Source of the DNA: a virus
Lineage: Duplodnaviria; Heunggongvirae; Uroviricota; Caudoviricetes
Strand: one strand, 5' to 3'
DNA: 64,000 nt
Virus record (IMG/VR): IMGVR_UViG_2718217859_000011
Location: 23,757 to 87,756 of that record
The position numbers and the translations under genes were made by a program. Shown here one piece after another: positions 256-53,571 of the stretch (positions within the stretch are counted from its first letter, which is position 1; each line of letters starts with the position of its first letter). The notes under the pieces are model-generated. The model saw nothing but the letters and a program-made list of their open reading frames with translations. It had not been told where the DNA came from and ran no database searches.

Positions 256-480
256 TCAACACACTGGCTGTAATGCAGCCGATACCATGCGGCATTTAGC
301 GGCATTCATCGTACACTCAACGGTTAGCTCTTCATTCGTGGCATTCACCTGAAAGATCCGGGAGTGTAATTGCGTACATTTACCACTGAACGAACCTTCA
401 ACAAGAACACGACCACGCTGCAAAATACGGAACAGAATTGTTCCCTGAAAAGGCTTTACGGTTACCAGTAATTTCTTCAT
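256..480 (-). CDS. Hypothetical small protein (74 aa) downstream of the lysis genes
   Basis: ORF with GGAG RBS 5 nt upstream of ATG at 480; no family recognised. Confidence 0.4.
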   Translation of the reverse strand: MKKLLVTVKPFQGTILFRILQRGRVLVEGSFSGKCTQLHSRIFQVNATNEELTVECTMNAAKCRMVSAALQPVC

Positions 481-503
481 GCATTCTCCGGATAACAAAA
501 ATA

Positions 504-971
504 CTAGTTAATACACTGAGTGCGGATATATTCCTGCGCCCCTTCCAGCTGCTTCTGCATCATCATCAACCGCTCTCTGAGAGTGAAATAATCCCGTTCA
601 ACTGTGTCTGCCAGTCGGGGGCCGGTTGCATTATCCACGCCGGAGGTGCCGGTGGCTTCACGCACGGTACCGGAGCAGGTGGCGTTGATCCGCAGGCGCT
701 TACGACCAGCGGCAACATCAGCACGCAGAGTTTCATTTTCAGCTCTCGCATCGGCTAATTCCCTCGAGTATCTGGCATCAAGTGCAGCGACATCACGCTG
801 GCGTATCTGCATATCAGTAATTGTCGCGTTCGCCAGCTCCAGCTCTCTGACTTTTTTATCGCGCTGCGCTTTGTAGGTGATGGCGTTATCGCGGTAATGA
901 TTCAGCCCCAGACCAAGCGCACCACAGGCTACCAGCAGGACAATAATCACCACACACAGAACACGGTTCAT
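504..971 (-). CDS. Rz: Rz-like i-spanin (lysis)
   Basis: 155 aa, N-terminal TM segment, strong resemblance to lambda Rz ([31 protein letters not shown] motifs); embedded Rz1 frame. Confidence 0.85.
566..751 (-). CDS. Rz1: Rz1-like o-spanin lipoprotein embedded in the +1 frame of Rz
   Basis: 61 aa, lipobox LVVSAC, proline-rich ([15 protein letters not shown]) like lambda Rz1; fully nested in Rz. Confidence 0.8.
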
Positions 972-1111
972 ATCCCCCTCACCCCAGCATCCCCGACGAA
1001 GACAACATCATCCAGCCTAAGAGCAACCAGCATTAGTGAAAATGAAATGCCGACGATTACACAGAGGATCTTCGCCAGCGTTATGAGCTTGTCTGACATG
1101 CTTAATCCTCT

Positions 1112-1294
1112 TCACGATTTCAACGCAATGACCAGTTTTGCCAGCCCATACAGCATCGGAGACACAGCAATACCGACCGCCACCCACTTAATAGCAAAAG
1201 CCAGCGCTCTGCTGATGTCATCAGTTACAGGCGCTTTCAGTTCAAGGCCGTTTTTCATAGTCAACCTCAACAGAATTCGTTTATACTTTTCCAT
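1112..1294 (-). CDS. Small membrane protein (60 aa) between endolysin and Rz
   Basis: ORF starting MEKYKRILL with GGGAG RBS; C-terminal hydrophobic segment. Confidence 0.4.
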   Translation of the reverse strand: MEKYKRILLRLTMKNGLELKAPVTDDISRALAFAIKWVAVGIAVSPMLYGLAKLVIALKS

Positions 1295-1326
1295 GTTCTC
1301 CCTTGCCTTATCCAAGGTCAGAAACA

Positions 1327-1362
1327 CAAAACCCCGCTTGCTGCCAACAAACGGGGTTTTAC
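1327..1362. terminator. Hairpin aaaccccg...cggggtttt (possible bidirectional or partial terminator)
   Basis: Inverted repeat ccccg(n)cgggg flanked by A/T runs on both strands. Confidence 0.3.
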
Positions 1363-1449
1363 TTTTATTCACTTAGGTTTTGCCAGTTCGCAGGATTTCG
1401 TGTTATCCGTCCGCGTTGGTCAACGTCATTTTTCAGCAAAATATTCTGC

Positions 1450-1983
1450 TTATCTGTCGATTCCCCAGCACGCCAGCGCACTTTCCTGATCTCGCCGGGA
1501 TACCTGACCGTAGCAATTATTTGAGCGGATACGGCAGTCTCTGCCACCGTCCTTAATCCACCAGCGAATCGCTTCACACGCTCCCCTGCGATCGCCTGCA
1601 TTAATTCGTTTATAAAACGTCGACGGGAAACACTTACCGGGGCCAATGTTATACGGACAGAATGACGCGATCCCCGCTTTCTGGGGTTCAGTCAGTGGCA
1701 CTTTGATGTTTTTCGCCACCCATGCCAGCGCCTTGTCACGTTCAATGGCGTTAACCCGGTCGCATTTTTCCTTTGACAGCTTCATGCCAGGAATAACAGG
1801 CTTACCATCCACCCGGGTGGCTCCACGGCAGATGGTCCAGATCCCCGCACCATCACGGTATGCCGTGGTGTGGTTACCTTCCTTTTCATCCAGAAACTGG
1901 TCGAGGATTTCAGGCGCAGGCGCACCTGCGGCAATCAGCGCCAGAACGGCAGCCGACAGACCGTATTTGATTTTGGTGTTCAT
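1450..1983 (-). CDS. SAR endolysin (phage lysozyme, GH24-like)
   Basis: 177 aa; N-terminal signal-arrest-release-like hydrophobic stretch (GLSAAVLALIAAGAPA) followed by a lysozyme catalytic region (EGNHTTAYRDGAGIWTICRG). Confidence 0.8.
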   Translation of the reverse strand: MNTKIKYGLSAAVLALIAAGAPAPEILDQFLDEKEGNHTTAYRDGAGIWTICRGATRVDGKPVIPGMKLSKEKCDRVNAIERDKALAWVAKNIKVPLTEPQKAGIASFCPYNIGPGKCFPSTFYKRINAGDRRGACEAIRWWIKDGGRDCRIRSNNCYGQVSRRDQESALACWGIDR

Positions 1984-2111
1984 GGATATTTATCAGGATT
2001 TATCGGTTCCGAATCCCTGGATATGTTAAGTCTTCAGCCTGCCAGTGGTGGGCACTGGTGTTTTACCTGATGGCTGAAATATATCTGACAATTCCCGTCG
2101 AGGATTTAGCA

Positions 2112-2426
2112 ATGTATAACGATGAACATAAATATACCGCCTGCATGCAGGCCATGAATGAACAATTTAAATCAGCATTCCTTAAACTCATTCAGCAAAA
2201 CCACGAAGCAGTAAAATCCATTCAGGCTGAGCCGTATGGACACCTCACACCACCAACTCTCGACATTATGTCCAGAATATTAACACCAGCCATGCTTCTA
2301 CGTCTGAAAGACAATATAAATGACTGGTTAAACGAAGAATTAAACTACCTTGAATGTGAGTGGGATCATCATTACGCCAAATCACAAAAAGAACGCATCT
2401 TCCGTCGATTATCCGGCAACAGATAA
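2112..2426 (+). CDS. Hypothetical protein (104 aa), oriented against the late operon
   Basis: ATG at 2112 with GAGGA RBS; convergent with the 2436-3077 gene; no family recognised. Confidence 0.5.
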   Translation: MYNDEHKYTACMQAMNEQFKSAFLKLIQQNHEAVKSIQAEPYGHLTPPTLDIMSRILTPAMLLRLKDNINDWLNEELNYLECEWDHHYAKSQKERIFRRLSGNR

Positions 2427-2435
2427 CGAGCCAGC

Positions 2436-3077
2436 TTATATACGTCCTTTAAGATAAGTCAGTCCTGGATGAAACCAGTAAGCCGGCACTTTTTTAAAGG
2501 GCGGATTATCAAAATCACGAAGAAGAGCCTCCCGCACAACTGCATCCTTGTCCGCACCACTGGCCAGCGCTTCAATCTCAGCAGCTACCTGCAGATATCC
2601 CATGCAACGACCAATGCGCTTCATTAGTCCCTGCTTTTTATTGTTCTTCAGGTAATCAATGGCAAATTCAATGAGCGCCTCACTGTGCTGGTGCGATGCT
2701 GGTGTTACTTTTCCATCTTCACGGATCGTGATATTCCAGTCATCGCTTGTCACAATAAAAGATGGCCGATTATCCCCCCATTCCTGGTCTTTATCCGGTG
2801 CAGACGCAATAAAATAACGTTTATTGCCTTCCTCTCCGGCACTTTTAACTGTAATGGAGTACTTTTCTGACAATGCGGTCGGTAAAAACTTTTCCTGCAA
2901 AATCTTCGCAAAGGTCCTGCGAGCAATTTTGATGCAATCATCGTAAAACGCTGCTTCCTGCTCATCGCGGCGTTTTTTTTCATCTTCAGAAACCATCAGC
3001 ACCGACAGTTTTTTATTCAGTTCAGTGATTTCATTTTCCAGGCAACTTATGCGCTGATTCATTTCTTCATGGTTCAT
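2436..3077 (-). CDS. Hypothetical protein (213 aa, N-terminal coiled coil), cargo gene inserted between pinholin and endolysin
   Basis: ATG 3 nt after the pinholin stop with GGGGAGAG RBS inside the end of the pinholin gene; AT-rich relative to flanks. Confidence 0.55.
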   Translation of the reverse strand: MNHEEMNQRISCLENEITELNKKLSVLMVSEDEKKRRDEQEAAFYDDCIKIARRTFAKILQEKFLPTALSEKYSITVKSAGEEGNKRYFIASAPDKDQEWGDNRPSFIVTSDDWNITIREDGKVTPASHQHSEALIEFAIDYLKNNKKQGLMKRIGRCMGYLQVAAEIEALASGADKDAVVREALLRDFDNPPFKKVPAYWFHPGLTYLKGRI

Positions 3078-3080
3078 CGT

Positions 3081-3296
3081 CTACTCTCCCCGCGCCGCCT
3101 TACGCCGGTCCTCTCTGATTTTGAAATACAGGTTAGTCAGGTACGTCAGCAGGCCAAACAGCAGACTCCCCAGCACACCTATCGCCACCCACTGGGACGG
3201 AGAGACTTTGTCCAGCAGCTGCAGTAACCAGTATCCCGTCCCCACCGCTGACGTGGTGTATGACACACCTGTTGTGATTTTTTCCATCTGGTACAT
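3081..3296 (-). CDS. Pinholin (phage 21 S21-like holin/antiholin with dual start MYQM)
   Basis: 71 aa; C-terminus [27 protein letters not shown] matches the S21 pinholin pattern; two TM segments; dual-start motif Met1/Met4. Confidence 0.8.
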
Positions 3297-3597
3297 ACCC
3301 CGTCTCCCGTTATCCGGAAGCTGACAACAATAAAAAAGCCACCCGTTAATTACTGATGGCTCTGATGCATAAACGTCATCATTCCCGACCGTTATGATTG
3401 ACAATGGTTATCATTTTTATATAAAAATACTCCCGATATGTGTTACATATCATTTCTCCACGGGGAATATCCCCACGCCAGCGTCAGACTCGTTTTCCCG
3501 TTCTCTTCTGTGCTGGCGTTTTTTTATCATGATGTCGGTACATTTATCTCCAGCACCAGGCTTTCAATCTCAACACCATACGCGGAATTTTTGGGCG

Positions 3598-3627
3598 TAA
3601 AAAATCCCCTCCGGTGAGGGGATTTGC
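3598..3627 (-). terminator. Strong hairpin (aatcccctc cggt gaggggatt) upstream of the lysis cassette
   Basis: 9-10 bp GC-rich stem with flanking A/T runs; lies between the moron block and the pinholin gene. Confidence 0.4.
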
Positions 3628-3856
3628 TTATGTAAACATTTACACTGCTTACCTGCATGGTGCCGGGTGCCTCCCGGTGAATTCAGTATCAGCACCTGAA
3701 TCCGCAATTATCCCATATACCTACTTGCTGATTGCCCCTCCGCACAGGGGGATTCACCATGCGAAATTTTTTTAACAAATGCTCAGTCTGACAGGCAACT
3801 GTCAACTGACTGAATTGTGAGACAATTAAAATTTTCTGGGCGTAACTGATACCCGG

Positions 3857-4021
3857 TTAACTACCTGGCATGTCCTTTTTCACCAAAGGAAAAAGCACCA
3901 CCACAATACCGACCACCAGCACTCCATCCGCCAGCACCGACATGATCCTGCTGGTGAAATCCACCATCACCACCAGAAACAGCAGGAGTGCCACAGCGGC
4001 CAGACGCAGTTTTACCGTCAC
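3857..4021 (-). CDS. Small hydrophobic peptide (54 aa, GTG start overlapping the TerB-like stop)
   Basis: Reverse-strand frame VTVKLRLAAVALLLFLVVMVDF...VVVLFPLVKKDMPGS; GTGA start/stop overlap with the upstream gene; below the 60-aa ORF-track cutoff. Confidence 0.35.
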   Translation of the reverse strand: MTVKLRLAAVALLLFLVVMVDFTSRIMSVLADGVLVVGIVVVLFPLVKKDMPGS

Positions 4022-4449
4022 AGGTGGTTCTCCAGTCGCAGGCCAAGAACACCAGCAATCTCTTCCAGAACCTTACGCTCTTCCGGCTCAATTTCACCAT
4101 CTGCTTCAGCAATGGCCACCGCCACATCCAGCACATCTTCCGCTTCACGCGTATCGTGTTTCACATCTTCAATTTCACGCAACGCTGCACGACGACCAAT
4201 TTTAAAATTGGTGTCAAGCTGACCTGTGATCGTGGCACTGATGGCATTAATTTCTGACGTAAATGCGGACAATGCTGGCTGGTTACGTAATACCTGTTCG
4301 ATCTTCGCTTTCTCTGAAGTCTCACATTCACCATCTGCATAGGCCACCAGGTAGGCAGCATTAATAACCGCCTGTGCCAGATCGCGTTTCTCAAACTTTT
4401 TAATTTCAGTTGCTGCTCTGCGGGTTTTCTTTTTGAAAATACCAAACAT
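4018..4449 (-). CDS. TerB-like (tellurite-resistance TerB family) protein
   Basis: 143 aa with paired ADGExxxxE-type motifs (LVAYADGECETSEKAKIEQV, IAEADGEIEPEERKVLEEI); AAAGGAAA RBS. Confidence 0.55.
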   Translation of the reverse strand: MFGIFKKKTRRAATEIKKFEKRDLAQAVINAAYLVAYADGECETSEKAKIEQVLRNQPALSAFTSEINAISATITGQLDTNFKIGRRAALREIEDVKHDTREAEDVLDVAVAIAEADGEIEPEERKVLEEIAGVLGLRLENHL

Positions 4450-4622
4450 CGTGACTTTTCCTTTTAGTGGGTGAGCCTGCGCCCGGGGGTGACCAGCCCA
4501 CAGAGAAAGTCACACTGACCATCCAGTAAGCTCCCCCCTGAAAAGCTCTGTGGTTTTTGATATGCGCCGGGCGTGGCGCGGATACAAAAAAGGCCCGCAA
4601 AAGCGAGCCAGGAAAATAAGTA

Positions 4623-4699
4623 TGGCGCGTTGTACTGGATTCGAACCAGTGACCGATTGCTTAGAAGGCAATTGCTCTGTCCGACTGAGCTAACAACGC
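4623..4699 (-). tRNA. tRNA-Arg (anticodon UCU)
   Basis: Reverse complement GCGTTGTTAGCTCAGTCGGACAGAGCAATTGCCTTCTAAGCAATCGG...GGTTCGAATCC..ACAACGCGCCA folds as a cloverleaf; anticodon loop CTTCTAA. Confidence 0.8.
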
Positions 4700-4712
4700 A
4701 TGATGCAGATAA

Positions 4713-4793
4713 TGGACCGCCATCGAGGACTCGAACCCCGCACCAACAACCCTGTTATCGTGTCGTCTGCTCTTCCTGATGAGCTAATGGCGG
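4713..4793 (-). tRNA. tRNA-like sequence with atypical anticodon arm (possible degenerate tRNA)
   Basis: Acceptor stem CCGCCAT/ATGGCGG, D-arm and T-arm (GGTTCGAGTCC) are recognisable but no clean 5-bp stem with 7-nt anticodon loop could be folded by eye. Confidence 0.35.
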
Positions 4794-4800
4794 TATGTTA

Positions 4801-4876
4801 TGGTGGCCCTTGCTGGATTTGAACCAGCGACCTGGCGATTATGAGTCGCTCGCTCTCACCACTGAGCTAAAGGGCC
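4801..4876 (-). tRNA. tRNA with anticodon CAU (Ile2/Met type)
   Basis: Reverse complement GGCCCTTTAGCTCAGTGGTGAGAGCGAGCGACTCATAATCGCCAGGTCGCTGGTTCAAATCCAGCAAGGGCCACCA; anticodon loop CTCATAA. Confidence 0.75.
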
Positions 4877-4916: not shown

Positions 4917-5975
4917 TCATCCGTTCTGACTGACTAAATCCTGAACTTCCCTCACCGTCTGATCAAAACGCCCGGTCTCCAGCTCAACGCCAATTGCACG
5001 ACGTCCCAGCGCCATCGCTGCTTTGACCGTCGAACCCGACCCCATGAAAAAATCTGCAACCAGAGCTCCCGGACGACTGCTGGTGGTAATTATCTGACGC
5101 AACATCTCCGCCGGTTTTTCACAGGGATGTTTGCCGAGGTAATACTGTACAGGCTTATACATCCAGACATCCGTATACGGAACAGCAGCCGATACAGAAA
5201 AATAACGCCGCAAAGATTTGTACTCCTCCAGCGGGCTGGCATATTGCCGGTTAAGTTCACTGTATGTGCTGACCAGCTGGTGGTGTGGCTTTTCCAGTTC
5301 CCCGCGTTGATGTTTTTCTGCTGCAACACGCGCAAACAACGCCTGCAGTTTTCTGTAATCATCCTCGTTCGGTAACTGCCACTGGCGGGCACCAAACCAG
5401 TGCGACACCATGTTTTTCTTTCCGGTGGCTTCCGCTATCTGTTTTGACGTTATTCCCAGTGATTCACGCGCATCACGAAAGTAAGAAATCAGCGGGGCCA
5501 TGACGTGCTGTTTTAGCTCGCGCCCCTTTGCCGCATAGCCGTCATTTTTGGGCTGGTATGGCCCCTGATAATGTTCTGCAAACAGAATGCGTTCTGTCGC
5601 CGGGAAATACGCCCGCAGGCTTTCCTTGCTGCACCCGTTCCAGCGCCCGGACGGCTTCGCCCAGATAATGTGATTCAGCACATTAAAGCGTTCACGCATC
5701 ATGATTTCGATATCAGATGCCAGGCGATGACCACAGAACAGGTAAAGACTTCCGGCGGGCTTTAATACCCGCCAGAACTGCGCCAGACACTGGTCCAGCC
5801 ATTTCAGGTAATCATCATCGCCCTTCCACTGGTTATCCCAGCCCTCGGGCTTCACTTTAAAGTATGGCGGGTCTGTGACTATCAGGTCGACAGAGTTTTC
5901 CGGTAAGGCCTGGATAAACTCCAGGCAATCAGCGTTGATTAACTCACAACTGGATATTTTTACAGTATCAACCAT
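4917..5975 (-). CDS. DNA methyltransferase (N6-adenine/N4-cytosine type; DPPY motif before the C-terminal SAM-binding FMGSGST)
   Basis: 352 aa; motif IV VTDPPY near the N-terminus and FxGxG near the C-terminus (beta-class permutation). Confidence 0.8.
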   Translation of the reverse strand: MVDTVKISSCELINADCLEFIQALPENSVDLIVTDPPYFKVKPEGWDNQWKGDDDYLKWLDQCLAQFWRVLKPAGSLYLFCGHRLASDIEIMMRERFNVLNHIIWAKPSGRWNGCSKESLRAYFPATERILFAEHYQGPYQPKNDGYAAKGRELKQHVMAPLISYFRDARESLGITSKQIAEATGKKNMVSHWFGARQWQLPNEDDYRKLQALFARVAAEKHQRGELEKPHHQLVSTYSELNRQYASPLEEYKSLRRYFSVSAAVPYTDVWMYKPVQYYLGKHPCEKPAEMLRQIITTSSRPGALVADFFMGSGSTVKAAMALGRRAIGVELETGRFDQTVREVQDLVSQNG

Positions 5976-52423: not shown

Positions 52424-53571
52424 TTACGCCCCCTTACCTCTGAAGAGTTCAGCGACGAATGAATAAGACGGGCAAGAAATGCCGCATCGTTAATTCGGTC
52501 ATACAGACTTACAGCCAGCGGTGATTCAGCTTTTTCCAGCATGGGATAAAGCTGCTGCAACCAGACCTGATGAATTGATGAAATGTAGGAATAGAGTACG
52601 CTGGCGTTATGTGCAACGTCGCTCGGTACAGCGGGCTTTGAAAGCTGTTTCTCCATCTGGTTAAAGGCATTGATGTATGCCTCTTTGAACTGGGCAGCAC
52701 GTTTACCCGTGAAACCCATAGCAAGAAACGCAAAACCGTCGCGGGTTATTTGATAGCAAGGTAGTTTGCGGCCTGTGCAATCGGTGTAATCACTCACCGA
52801 AAAATTGCGGGCAGTGAATGATGCGGAGCATTCAAGCGTGCGGATCTTTTTCAGTACATCGTCATGACGTTTGGAGAAGAAGTTGGCAACAGCCAGGGAT
52901 GAAGTAACAGCCTGACCATCAACGATGGCAATTTCAGGTTGAGTGAGGGTTGGGATCGTAGCCATGATGGCAGCCTCTTTGGTGATTTTTAATAACTCAC
53001 CACCAAGGCTTTCCACGACCTTATTGGTGGTGAGACGTACAGGGGTGGAAATACCGGTCACCAAAGAACCCGGCCCAACCGAAGTTGGCCCTGCACGCCC
53101 CACCATAATTTGGGCGTAATGCTGCTCATGACACAAAAAAACCGCAAGAGCGCGGTTGTGCGCTTTGGTGAATTCCGGGTTTCCACGCCCGGCACCCGCT
53201 TTATAAGGTGCCTGAACAGTGTAACGTCCCGGAATGGCAGAATCAATGTGCTGGTGGTCCTTCACACTCAACAAAATCACGCCTGAATTTCCACAAAGGG
53301 CTAAAGCACTCATGCGGGTAGTCTTTGCGAAGATAGATAACGCGCTGTGTTTCTGGCTCCCAACGAATAACATGAACATAAAGTCCTCTTCCGTCACGAA
53401 ACCAGCGGTTAAGTTCCTGCACAACTCGCCCCCCACAGTCAGGTAAAGTTCTCTGTGGTTACTTACAGCCAGGAGATTTGGTAATCTGCATTCATGCCGT
53501 AACAACAGGTGTTCAGCGACGCTGACCACCAGCTGTTGCGACAAATGGTTATTTGCCGTTAAACTGTTCAT
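52420..53571 (-). CDS. Rha-family regulatory protein (Rha domain from the ATG at 52965; the N-terminal 200 codons of the open frame are of uncertain status)
   Basis: C-terminal 181 aa MATIPTLTQPEIAIVDGQAVTSSLAVANFFSKRHDDVLKKI resembles the Rha family; AAGAGG RBS before 52965. Confidence 0.5.
   Translation of the reverse strand: MNSLTANNHLSQQLVVSVAEHLLLRHECRLPNLLAVSNHRELYLTVGGELCRNLTAGFVTEEDFMFMLFVGSQKHSALSIFAKTTRMSALALCGNSGVILLSVKDHQHIDSAIPGRYTVQAPYKAGAGRGNPEFTKAHNRALAVFLCHEQHYAQIMVGRAGPTSVGPGSLVTGISTPVRLTTNKVVESLGGELLKITKEAAIMATIPTLTQPEIAIVDGQAVTSSLAVANFFSKRHDDVLKKIRTLECSASFTARNFSVSDYTDCTGRKLPCYQITRDGFAFLAMGFTGKRAAQFKEAYINAFNQMEKQLSKPAVPSDVAHNASVLYSYISSIHQVWLQQLYPMLEKAESPLAVSLYDRINDAAFLARLIHSSLNSSEVRGRK

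Follow-up and report, generated by a model that had tools for sequence, protein, structure and literature searches.

Convergent accessory units between the holin and endolysin genes of a Shiga toxin phage-like prophage, and a candidate leader RNA common to reverse-oriented moron cassettes

Two accessory units face each other between the holin gene S and the endolysin gene R of a prophage lysis cassette, and one of them begins with a conserved, apparently structured leader that also precedes many unrelated small genes in other phages. The DNA concerned, which we call the window throughout, is a stretch of 64,000 nucleotides (nt) from a Caudoviricetes genome (positions 23,757 to 87,756 of IMG/VR record IMGVR_UViG_2718217859_000011), and the interval under study occupies its positions 1984 to 3077. 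On the late-transcribed minus strand the interval carries a gene for a protein of 213 amino acids (aa), and on the plus strand a gene for a 104-aa protein, here called p104. We lean towards the view that these are two different accessory units, repeatedly found together in convergent orientation in lambdoid and HK97-like prophages of the Enterobacteriaceae, the plus-strand unit being a cassette that is expressed in the lysogen and silenced by antisense transcription from the late operon. The original prediction had treated the interval as one two-gene insert; it is better read as a late-operon gene plus a reverse moron cassette that recur together.

Two genes in the S-R junction

Both open reading frames (ORFs) lie between S and R and converge, as had been predicted. 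The gene for the S21-type class II (pin)holin (71 aa; 3081-3296, minus strand; PF04971, E 1e-32; phrog_20 and phrog_9876, both annotated as holin; dual-start motif MYQMEK...) ends with a TAG at 3081-3083, and the 213-aa ORF (2436-3077, minus strand) starts 3 nt further on with an ATG at 3077, its GGAGAG Shine-Dalgarno (SD) sequence sitting within the last holin codons. The p104 ORF (2112-2426, plus strand; GAGGA SD at 2100-2104) approaches it from the other side, leaving 9 nt between the two stops (2427-2435). Divergent from p104, with its start codon at 1983, is the gene for the R21-type signal-arrest-release (SAR) endolysin (1450-1983, minus strand; PF00959, E 1.3e-24; phrog_7, annotated as endolysin). 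Inspection of the sequence and a terminator scan found no terminator hairpin in the 9-nt gap, and each transcript must therefore enter the opposite gene antisense; the gene orientations agree with the antisense geometry that had been proposed for the plus-strand gene relative to the late lysis genes. The AT-richness noted earlier is also real, with a GC content of 0.39-0.43 in the 104-aa gene and 0.44-0.48 in the 213-aa gene, as against 0.51 in S and 0.52-0.56 in R. The whole S-R interval is 100% identical in prophages of E. coli 08-00022 and of other, mostly cattle- or produce-associated strains, which come from several sources and countries.

Judged by their patterns of substitution, both ORFs are real genes under purifying selection. 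Alleles of p104 whose DNA diverges by about 20% all retain exactly 104 codons, free of insertions and deletions, the p104 frame is the only open one of six, and its ratio of nonsynonymous to synonymous change (dN/dS) is 0.27-0.47; over the C-terminal 109 codons of the 213-aa gene dN/dS is 0.17-0.39. PGAP starts the plus-strand gene at 2070, a choice that other alleles do not bear out, since the frame of that ATG runs into a TAA just before the conserved ATG in them; position 2112 is thus the conserved start of p104. The gene behaves as accessory cargo, as the original prediction supposed: Shiga toxin (Stx) phage 933W has no insert, and the otherwise related loci L004 and L005 lack the 104-aa gene. 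It is present in 95 of 5426 complete E. coli genomes, as against 787 for the YdfR-C module described below, and a profile search found homologues in Salmonella (49% identity) and in a metagenome (38%). GTDB, searched with one genome per species, held no relative. The predicted product is a soluble protein of about 12.4 kDa (pI 6.5), modelled confidently by AlphaFold as five helices (pLDDT 85, pTM 0.79); a fold search with this model gave no informative match, and none in BFVD.

The 213-aa protein is, on alignment, a headless member of the mosaic YdfR family, consisting of a coiled coil, a middle region and a conserved C-terminal domain of about 110 aa that we call YdfR-C (signature …MKRIGRCMGYLQVAAEIEA…DNPPFK…W..PG.TYLKGRI) and lacking the N-terminal DUF1327 domain. 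The original prediction could name no family for either protein. This holds for Pfam, NCBIfam, PADLOC and PDB-sequence searches, all of which were empty for both (profile searches against PDB sequences gave nothing below E 0.05), but the 213-aa protein belongs to phrog_1085 and is homologous to YdfR, and p104 matches phrog_1853 alone. The phrog_1085 match (E 2e-101) covers only positions 117-296 of a 296-position profile. A protein search returned 189 homologous clusters, many of which are named "YdfR family", measure 268-333 aa and carry DUF1327 (PF07041) at the N-terminus; all source names among the 120 clusters listed are E. coli. All of the 213-aa protein can be aligned with the C-terminal two thirds of YdfR-annotated proteins of 268-333 aa, and it is 55-87% identical to PF07041-bearing proteins of 259-333 aa at 69-99% query coverage. 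DUF1327 itself is absent from it (no Pfam match at E<=0.01); its relatives at loci L061 and L062 score E 7.5e-34 and 6.6e-40, respectively, for PF07041.

The family alignment resolves into modules, namely DUF1327, a linker, a coiled coil, a variable middle and YdfR-C. Three of these make up the protein in the window: long helices or coiled coil in residues 1-64 (2886-3077, minus strand), a variable and poorly predicted middle in residues 65-104 (2766-2885), and the YdfR-C domain in residues 105-213 (2439-2765). In the AlphaFold (AF2) model, long helices at the N-terminus give way to a disordered middle, beyond which come a small β-meander and further helices. Only 42 proteins among 1.84 billion representatives were found by HMMER with this family, which is therefore narrow; the long repeat proteins among the 42 (Big_12, SRCR, HEAT) were discarded as spurious summed matches. 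Neither the 213-aa protein nor p104 has a hydrophobic or membrane segment (grand averages of hydropathy -0.62 and -0.75), and PADLOC-DB 2.0 holds no family matching either at E<=1, nor any for their homologues. The DUF1327-less 213-aa form is widespread, with many alleles and a single 90%-identity cluster of 253 member sequences; chimeric or truncated derivatives (for example P0143 and P0145) and frameshifted copies also exist.

Annotation of this family is unreliable at some loci. PGAP/RefSeq applies the label "YdfR family pseudogene, missing C-terminus" at L004 3055-3390, L005 3155-3490 and L007 3296-3631 (L007 being the chromosome of O104:H4 strain 2011C-3493), and leaves the remainder of the gene unannotated. 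The ORFs of L004 and L007 are intact fusions of 268 and 297 aa, so the label is an artefact, which looks like the systematic result of a short family model. In a separate protein, P0162, the YdfR coiled-coil module is fused to a different N-terminal domain that by eye resembles the small gene 3' of Rz in the window (256-498, minus strand; MKKLLVTVKPFQG...); this fusion points to a wider shuffling of domains among late-region accessory genes.

We surveyed the S-R junction in 80 sampled IMG/VR contigs whose holin is at least 94% identical to that of the window, a sample that favours its close relatives; S and R were both in reach in 59. A YdfR-family gene lies between them in 58 of the 59 junctions. 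DUF1327 alone accounts for 41, a coiled coil with YdfR-C for seven, loci with p104 for five and other YdfR-family mixes for another five, and a single junction is contiguous. The expectation that S and R normally adjoin is borne out by 933W, where they are 4 nt apart, but not by the close holin relatives. We believe that this near-constant YdfR-family slot in the S-R junction of the present cassette type has not been described before. The same two genes as in the window stand between S and R in Stx2 phage 86 (orf5/orf6), in the Stx2_12E129 phages and in the chromosomal locus of O104:H4 2011C-3493, and the essQ-ydfR-rrrQ genes of the K-12 Qin prophage presumably have the same layout.

A conserved leader before unrelated small genes

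The 128 nt that separate the start codon of R from that of p104 (1984-2111, plus strand) are a conserved element and not a plain spacer. Its first part, 1984-2019 (GGATATTTATCAGGATTT...CCCTGG), is nearly invariant when aligned with canonical copies, in which it corresponds to the block CTACTGT-N-ATATCAGGGTGTT. The leader proper, 2020-2111, is recognised by our covariance model R1 with 45.1 bits (E 1.3e-8), and it is the only significant copy in the window; R1 was built from 44 copies, with the window sequence outside the training alignment. Canonical copies in the test loci, not all of which are independent of the training set, score 55-79 bits. Landmarks in the window are CCCTGG (2015-2020), TATGTT (2022-2027), the two strands of a helix P1 (UCAGCC at 2034-2039 and GGCUGA at 2072-2077), a hairpin P2 (2041-2047 paired with 2053-2059) and the SD of p104.

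The element is not tied to p104. Its first 75 nt in the window are 94-96% identical in phages with different cargo, and its core, TCAGCC-N3-CAGTGG-loop-CACTGG, lies both 5' of the p104 homologues in Salmonella and the metagenome and, in the same slot, before unrelated reverse genes: an 86-aa ORF in phage PhiR5_1, a 233-aa ORF in an Stx1a phage and a DUF1883 gene in another contig. Within the S-R survey, R1 found the leader in 14 of the 59 junctions, accompanied by p104 or by one of at least four other cargo types. An exact-pattern scan of IMG/VR gave at least 121 matches, and the figures that follow hold among the matches listed. The extended consensus …CTACTGT-N-ATATCAGGGTGTT…CCCTGGTTAAGGT-N6-TTCAGCCCGTCAGTGGTGGGACACTGGCGCACTC…GAGGGATGGCTGATTACCTCTG…AAGGA-N-ATG is shared by 110 of 121, and in 104 of these 110 copies an SD and an ORF follow. 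The cargo comprises at least 67 distinct ORFs in at least 23 BLAST families, mostly of 65-104 aa. True flanking genes are invariably on the strand opposite to the cassette, which is found among lysis genes, between tail genes M and L, between tail genes I and J, and in HNH/terminase regions.

Thirty-seven cargo-family representatives were compared with known families. No Pfam domain was found in 35 of them, the exceptions being DUF1883 and an aspartyl protease; their PHROG matches were solely to families of unknown function; and PADLOC gave nothing convincing, with two weak matches. Kinship between p104 and the largest cargo family was undetectable (hhalign probability 0.2%). The cargo includes two genes of classical phages, HK022 gene 23 ("srb protein; moron gene product"), which lies between gpI- and gpJ-like genes, and ES18 gene 25 ("possible moron"), between M- and L-like genes; both are preceded by the element. 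Copies of the element, about 95-150 nt long, were mapped to L008 3869-4003, L012 1598-1733, L266 (HK022) 1500-1633, L267 (ES18) 1501-1631 and L145 4362-4511 (minus strand), and further copies in IMG/VR loci L146-L265. Species-representative genomes with the element are those of three Citrobacter species, an Enterobacter, a Kluyvera and a gammaproteobacterial metagenome-assembled genome. A terminator-like hairpin stands 3' of many cargo ORFs. Just beyond the element, HK022 has a late-strand terminator and ES18 an annotated one, and by eye a similar hairpin with a T-run is present there in the Salmonella loci.

At L061 (1562-2263, plus strand; Stx1a phage Stx1_14040), the 233-aa ORF 3' of the leader is unannotated and overlaps the 3' end of an annotated 263-aa YdfR-like ORF; L256 has a 210-aa relative as its cargo. 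Wrong-strand read-through probably accounts for the C-terminus annotated for the 263-aa protein.

Pair counts on 68 distinct copies describe three helices. P1 (UCAGCC:GGCUGA) is almost invariant, with 96.8% of cells paired, and in the canonical leader it encloses the hairpin P2 (GUCAGUG:CACUGGC), which is invariant but for one pair that is U·G in 55 of the 68 copies and C-G in 13. P3, of 5 bp around GGCUGA, ends just before the SD; it shows compensatory changes at all five pairs (CAGAGG/CCUCUG, UGCGAG/CUCGCA and AUGGGG/CCCCAU are examples) and many G·U pairs, with U·G or G·U in 19 and 10 copies at two of its positions. In 500 column shuffles neither the observed covariation score nor the observed number of double changes was ever reached, sliding the partner columns by 1-3 lowered pairing from 93% to 27-44%, and RNAalifold independently predicts P1 and P2. 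The fold belongs to the cargo-sense RNA, because on the opposite strand its G·U pairs would turn into A·C mismatches, and the full fold is pseudoknot-like, because P3 crosses P1, whose 3' strand lies within the P3 loop. Taken as sequence evidence, these observations point to an apparently structured leader in the sense-strand RNA.

The same conservation might have arisen if the element acted as DNA, either as a site of recombination or insertion by which cassettes are moved, or as a repressor operator, with the RNA fold incidental. We consider this unlikely. Candidate sites do exist in the palindromes TTAACC-CT-GGTTAA and CAGTGG-N-CACTGG, but no recombinase was found among the 28 commonest neighbouring ORF clusters (eight of which were Pfam-scanned). 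The upstream CTG-N9-CAG...CCCTGG block is conserved outside the predicted helices, yet its CTG-N9-CAG motif, compared with the known consensus, lacks one base of the LexA-box spacing. The lack of any covariation in P1 and P2, the end of homology right after the hairpin in phages with different cargo, and the presence of the element at several different genomic positions would all suit a DNA site; a DNA site would not, however, be expected to show compensatory changes throughout P3, G·U pairs that work on the sense strand only, or a constant spacing from the SD and start codon (49-58 nt between core and ATG).

Several more familiar identities were tried and rejected for the element. An intrinsic terminator does not fit, as the T-run is present in E. 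coli alleles only and the hairpin lies upstream of the gene; a LexA box was dismissed on the spacing given above. Reading by eye for a sigma-54 or sigma-70 promoter gave no -12 or -35 element that was consistent. UUCAGCC, itself conserved, is preceded at a distance of about 7 nt by a conserved TAnnnT, with no -35 element recognised. TTAACC-CT-GGTTAA was dropped as a Hin/Gin-type crossover site, there being no invertase gene nearby and no tail-fibre context, and a conserved upstream ORF (MAEIYL.../MADYL...) was discarded since its frame and stop vary. No Rfam 15 family reaches its gathering threshold, the only matches being chance snoRNA-type ones at E>1.

How the two units are related

In all 60 p104 loci examined, a YdfR-C gene lies convergent to p104, across 38-100% protein identity and three neighbourhoods. 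Over their C-terminal ~100 aa, the Salmonella and metagenomic partners share 41-44% identity with YdfR-C, and the gaps between the convergent genes are 21 nt and 6 nt, respectively. The Salmonella pair follows Q and hicAB and stands upstream of a holin of another type (PF16080); in the metagenomic pair, the partner is a 125-aa protein with little beyond the C-terminal domain, and the pair adjoins a GH108 endolysin gene. When the gene convergent to the cargo was examined in 62 distinct modules, it was DUF1327-type in at least nine (four in lysis regions, two in tail, two in terminase and one unclassified), among them a 76-aa family tied to DUF1327 at an hhalign probability of 96.7%, and of the YdfR-C form in three. 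The largest partner family (111 aa, 24 modules) was rejected as YdfR-like, its resemblance to DUF1327 being weak and not significant (E 0.004-0.025, probability 2-8%). Other modules have an ordinary late gene directly beside the cargo. The pairing of a YdfR-family gene with an opposing leader-plus-cargo cassette is thus recurrent without being obligate, and at L074 a YdfR-C-bearing gene is paired with a different cargo.

We suggest that the two units work as follows. The 213-aa protein would be made from the Q-dependent late transcript, with its translation coupled to that of the holin, as its position implies. The second unit (about 1984-2426, plus strand) would be a reverse-oriented moron cassette, composed of a conserved 5' control region and a variable small ORF, here p104. 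It would be transcribed from the repressed prophage, with a start near the conserved UUCAGCC, and the shared leader would set expression of the cargo through translation or stability. Upon induction, strong late transcription would cross the cassette antisense and shut it off by antisense and collision effects, because no terminator separates the two genes. In this scheme p104 would be an accessory protein of the lysogenic phase, serving for example in exclusion, anti-defence or host modulation, and the YdfR-C domain may be its target or its partner. K-12 YdfR, a DUF1327-only protein, is reported to co-purify with RNA and to bind RNase E at its catalytic N-terminal half (PMC13232886). An RNA-level link between the two units thereby becomes plausible; the RNase E result itself is not transferable to the coiled-coil/YdfR-C protein, which has no DUF1327.

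Several observations weigh against this account. Expression in the lysogen is something that we infer from orientation and from the precedent of morons, and sigma-70 consensus scans found no promoter upstream of either p104 or HK022 gene 23. The cassette in the window has no terminator of its own. The 3' half of its leader is degenerate, GGCUGA being kept with no clear P3, and this copy may be differently regulated or decaying. P1 and P2 are invariant in sequence and P3 alone covaries, a pattern that fits a protein- or DNA-level site equally well. As to the pairing, the YdfR-C gene occurs without p104 in about eight times more E. coli genomes than carry p104 (787 vs 95). At L005 (2459-2500, compared with 1991-2010 plus 2405-2426 in the window) a clean microhomology deletion between the near-repeats GATTTATCGG and GATTATCCGG has removed the leader and p104, leaving the last p104 codons beside R and the YdfR-C gene undisturbed, so p104 is dispensable for its partner; the linkage of p104 with YdfR-C may reflect merely a shared slot. 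Finally, the 213-aa model (pLDDT 53) is too poor for a fold search or for any functional inference.

If the window copy is decaying, the two ORFs could be taken as functionless remnants, a truncated YdfR gene and a dead moron. The absence of DUF1327, the degenerate leader, and the chimeric, truncated and frameshifted copies elsewhere in the family could be read in this way, but we find the idea hardly credible for genes that are both intact and under purifying selection, in an interval conserved without change across strains from several sources and countries and with the headless form common in many alleles (the 253-member cluster).

A defence, abortive-infection or toxin-antidote system, in which one protein is toxic or senses infection, the other neutralises it and the convergent overlap provides antisense control, would explain the strict co-occurrence in 60 of 60 p104 loci at such varied identity and in three neighbourhoods. 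It would also suit the location in a prophage accessory hotspot and the hypervariable cargo slot, which recalls defence and anti-defence islands. PADLOC, however, was empty for both proteins and their homologues, apart from which there are only the two weak matches among the 37 cargo representatives; neither sequence contains an enzymatic motif; and the supposed partner is wired into the late operon rather than co-expressed with p104, is common without it, and survives its clean deletion in L005. We therefore think such a two-gene system improbable.

The position directly after S, the coupled translation and the presence of a YdfR-family gene there in 58 of 59 relatives could instead suggest a lysis-timing device. 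The 213-aa protein would bind the cytoplasmic tail of the pinholin or the SAR endolysin as a cytoplasmic antiholin or co-antiholin, a role for which RIII of T4 is a precedent, and p104 would antagonise it; that the pair is also near another holin in Salmonella and near a GH108 endolysin in the metagenomic contig is in keeping with this. Nothing here supports a dedicated role in lysis timing. The same cassette type, and DUF1327-type partners, are also located between tail genes and beside terminase. The 213-aa protein has no transmembrane segment, 933W lyses without such a gene, and the architecture of the family is highly mosaic, often DUF1327 alone. We regard a timing device as quite improbable.

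Returning to two units of which one is a silenced moron cassette, a bolder form of this proposal is possible, although we think it rather doubtful. The element of about 95 nt would be a new class of cis-regulatory RNA, a pseudoknotted 5' leader that gates hypervariable small moron proteins across the Enterobacteriaceae, HK022 and ES18 included. The convergent YdfR/DUF1327 family would be its trans-acting partner, switching the cargo off or processing the sense-antisense RNA pair when the late operon fires, and p104 and YdfR-C would be a specific interacting pair.

The surroundings of the interval offer further observations. Rz and Rz1 were identified by Pfam scan at 504-971 and 566-751 (both minus strand). 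Between R and Rz (968-1372, minus strand) are two small ORFs, one of 86 aa (60 aa according to PGAP; phrog_1115) with a hydrophobic C-terminal half and one, hydrophobic, of 43 aa; in 933W and phage 86 this position carries an ant gene, making it a second variable slot within the lysis cassette. Just upstream of the holin gene, 3593-3791 (minus strand) matches the Rfam small RNA STnc100 (149 bits) and includes a strong terminator. The Salmonella locus L008 has an STnc100 match (5299-5505, minus strand; 69 bits) directly upstream of the YdfR-like gene instead, so relative to this RNA the YdfR/cassette pair lies on different sides of the holin gene in the two loci. The region from a DNA methyltransferase gene to the holin gene (3857-4876, minus strand) contains tRNA genes (Ile, Arg and one unassigned in RefSeq), a TerB-family gene and a DUF3927 gene. 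The prophage resembles an Stx phage; the corresponding tRNA genes are followed by stx in 933W and by the TerB and DUF3927 genes in the window. Farther away, at 53023-53211 (minus strand), adjoining Rfam matches to C4 antisense RNA (84 bits) and isrK (67 bits) suggest a P1/P7-type immI/ant-like regulatory region elsewhere in the prophage.

Known systems and wider meaning

Among known elements, morons are the closest comparison. Like HK022 gene 23 ('srb'), ES18 gene 25 and lambda bor, the window cassette is an extra, AT-richer unit (GC 0.39-0.43 against surroundings of 0.52-0.56). It is absent from 933W; it opposes the late operon, as bor does in 933W, and it carries the same upstream element as the HK022 and ES18 genes. 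The classic definition of a moron, attributed to Juhala and colleagues in 2000, reportedly requires a promoter and a terminator of its own. The window cassette differs in having neither a promoter recognisable by consensus scans nor a terminator, the latter being present in many sister cassettes. We found no description of one conserved structured leader common to many unrelated morons in Rfam or, by term search, in a moron review (PMC3594210), and a literature search gave nothing on S-R intergenic genes, on 'srb' or on the element sequence.

The YdfR/DUF1327 proteins, such as YdfR of the K-12 Qin prophage and gp05 of Stx2 phage 86, occupy, like the 213-aa protein, the place between an S21-type holin and the endolysin, directly following the holin. 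K-12 YdfR has the opposite make-up to the window copy, with DUF1327 alone where the latter has none, and experimental data are limited to the DUF1327 protein (PMC13232886).

In their organisation the cassettes also recall acr-aca loci, which combine a conserved regulatory region with hypervariable small genes. Both have a constant control region before many unrelated, domain-less small ORFs, of about 65-105 aa in the cassettes. Unlike acr-aca loci, however, the cassette has no Aca-like helix-turn-helix regulator gene attached, its constant part resembles a structured 5' untranslated region and not a promoter-operator alone, and none of its cargo has a demonstrated anti-defence activity. As in riboswitches and protein-binding translational operators, the leader has a fixed position just upstream of the SD and three pseudoknot-like helices, one of them covarying, with strand-specific G·U pairs. 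It differs from such cis-regulatory leaders in that two of its three helices are invariant and that it has no match in Rfam 15, and from riboswitches in that its downstream genes are functionally unrelated, whereas known riboswitches control coherent regulons.

The gene pair itself is already in public records as hypothetical genes, orf5/orf6 of phage 86 included, and the moron concept is old. We believe that two things are newly described here: a single conserved, apparently structured leader that is common to reverse morons of enterobacterial prophages, whether in lysis, tail or terminase regions, and stands before many unrelated small genes; and the repeated presence of a YdfR-family gene opposite such a cassette. 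In E. coli prophages, among them those of Shiga-toxin-producing strains, pinholin/SAR-endolysin cassettes seldom have an empty S-R junction, and the findings as a whole provide a common frame for "hypothetical" gene pairs long tagged as "possible moron" in HK022 and ES18. An annotation fault, the PGAP pseudogene label on intact 268- and 297-aa YdfR fusion genes, is exposed as well. YdfR-family proteins are widespread and we know of no role assigned to them; a possible link to the cassette RNA and RNase E is now a lead. The pool of cargo is large, at least 23 unannotated families, and such sets of cargo genes have elsewhere yielded exclusion and anti-defence functions. If the leader is indeed a regulatory RNA, the cargo genes of prophages would be findable through their control region rather than through protein similarity.

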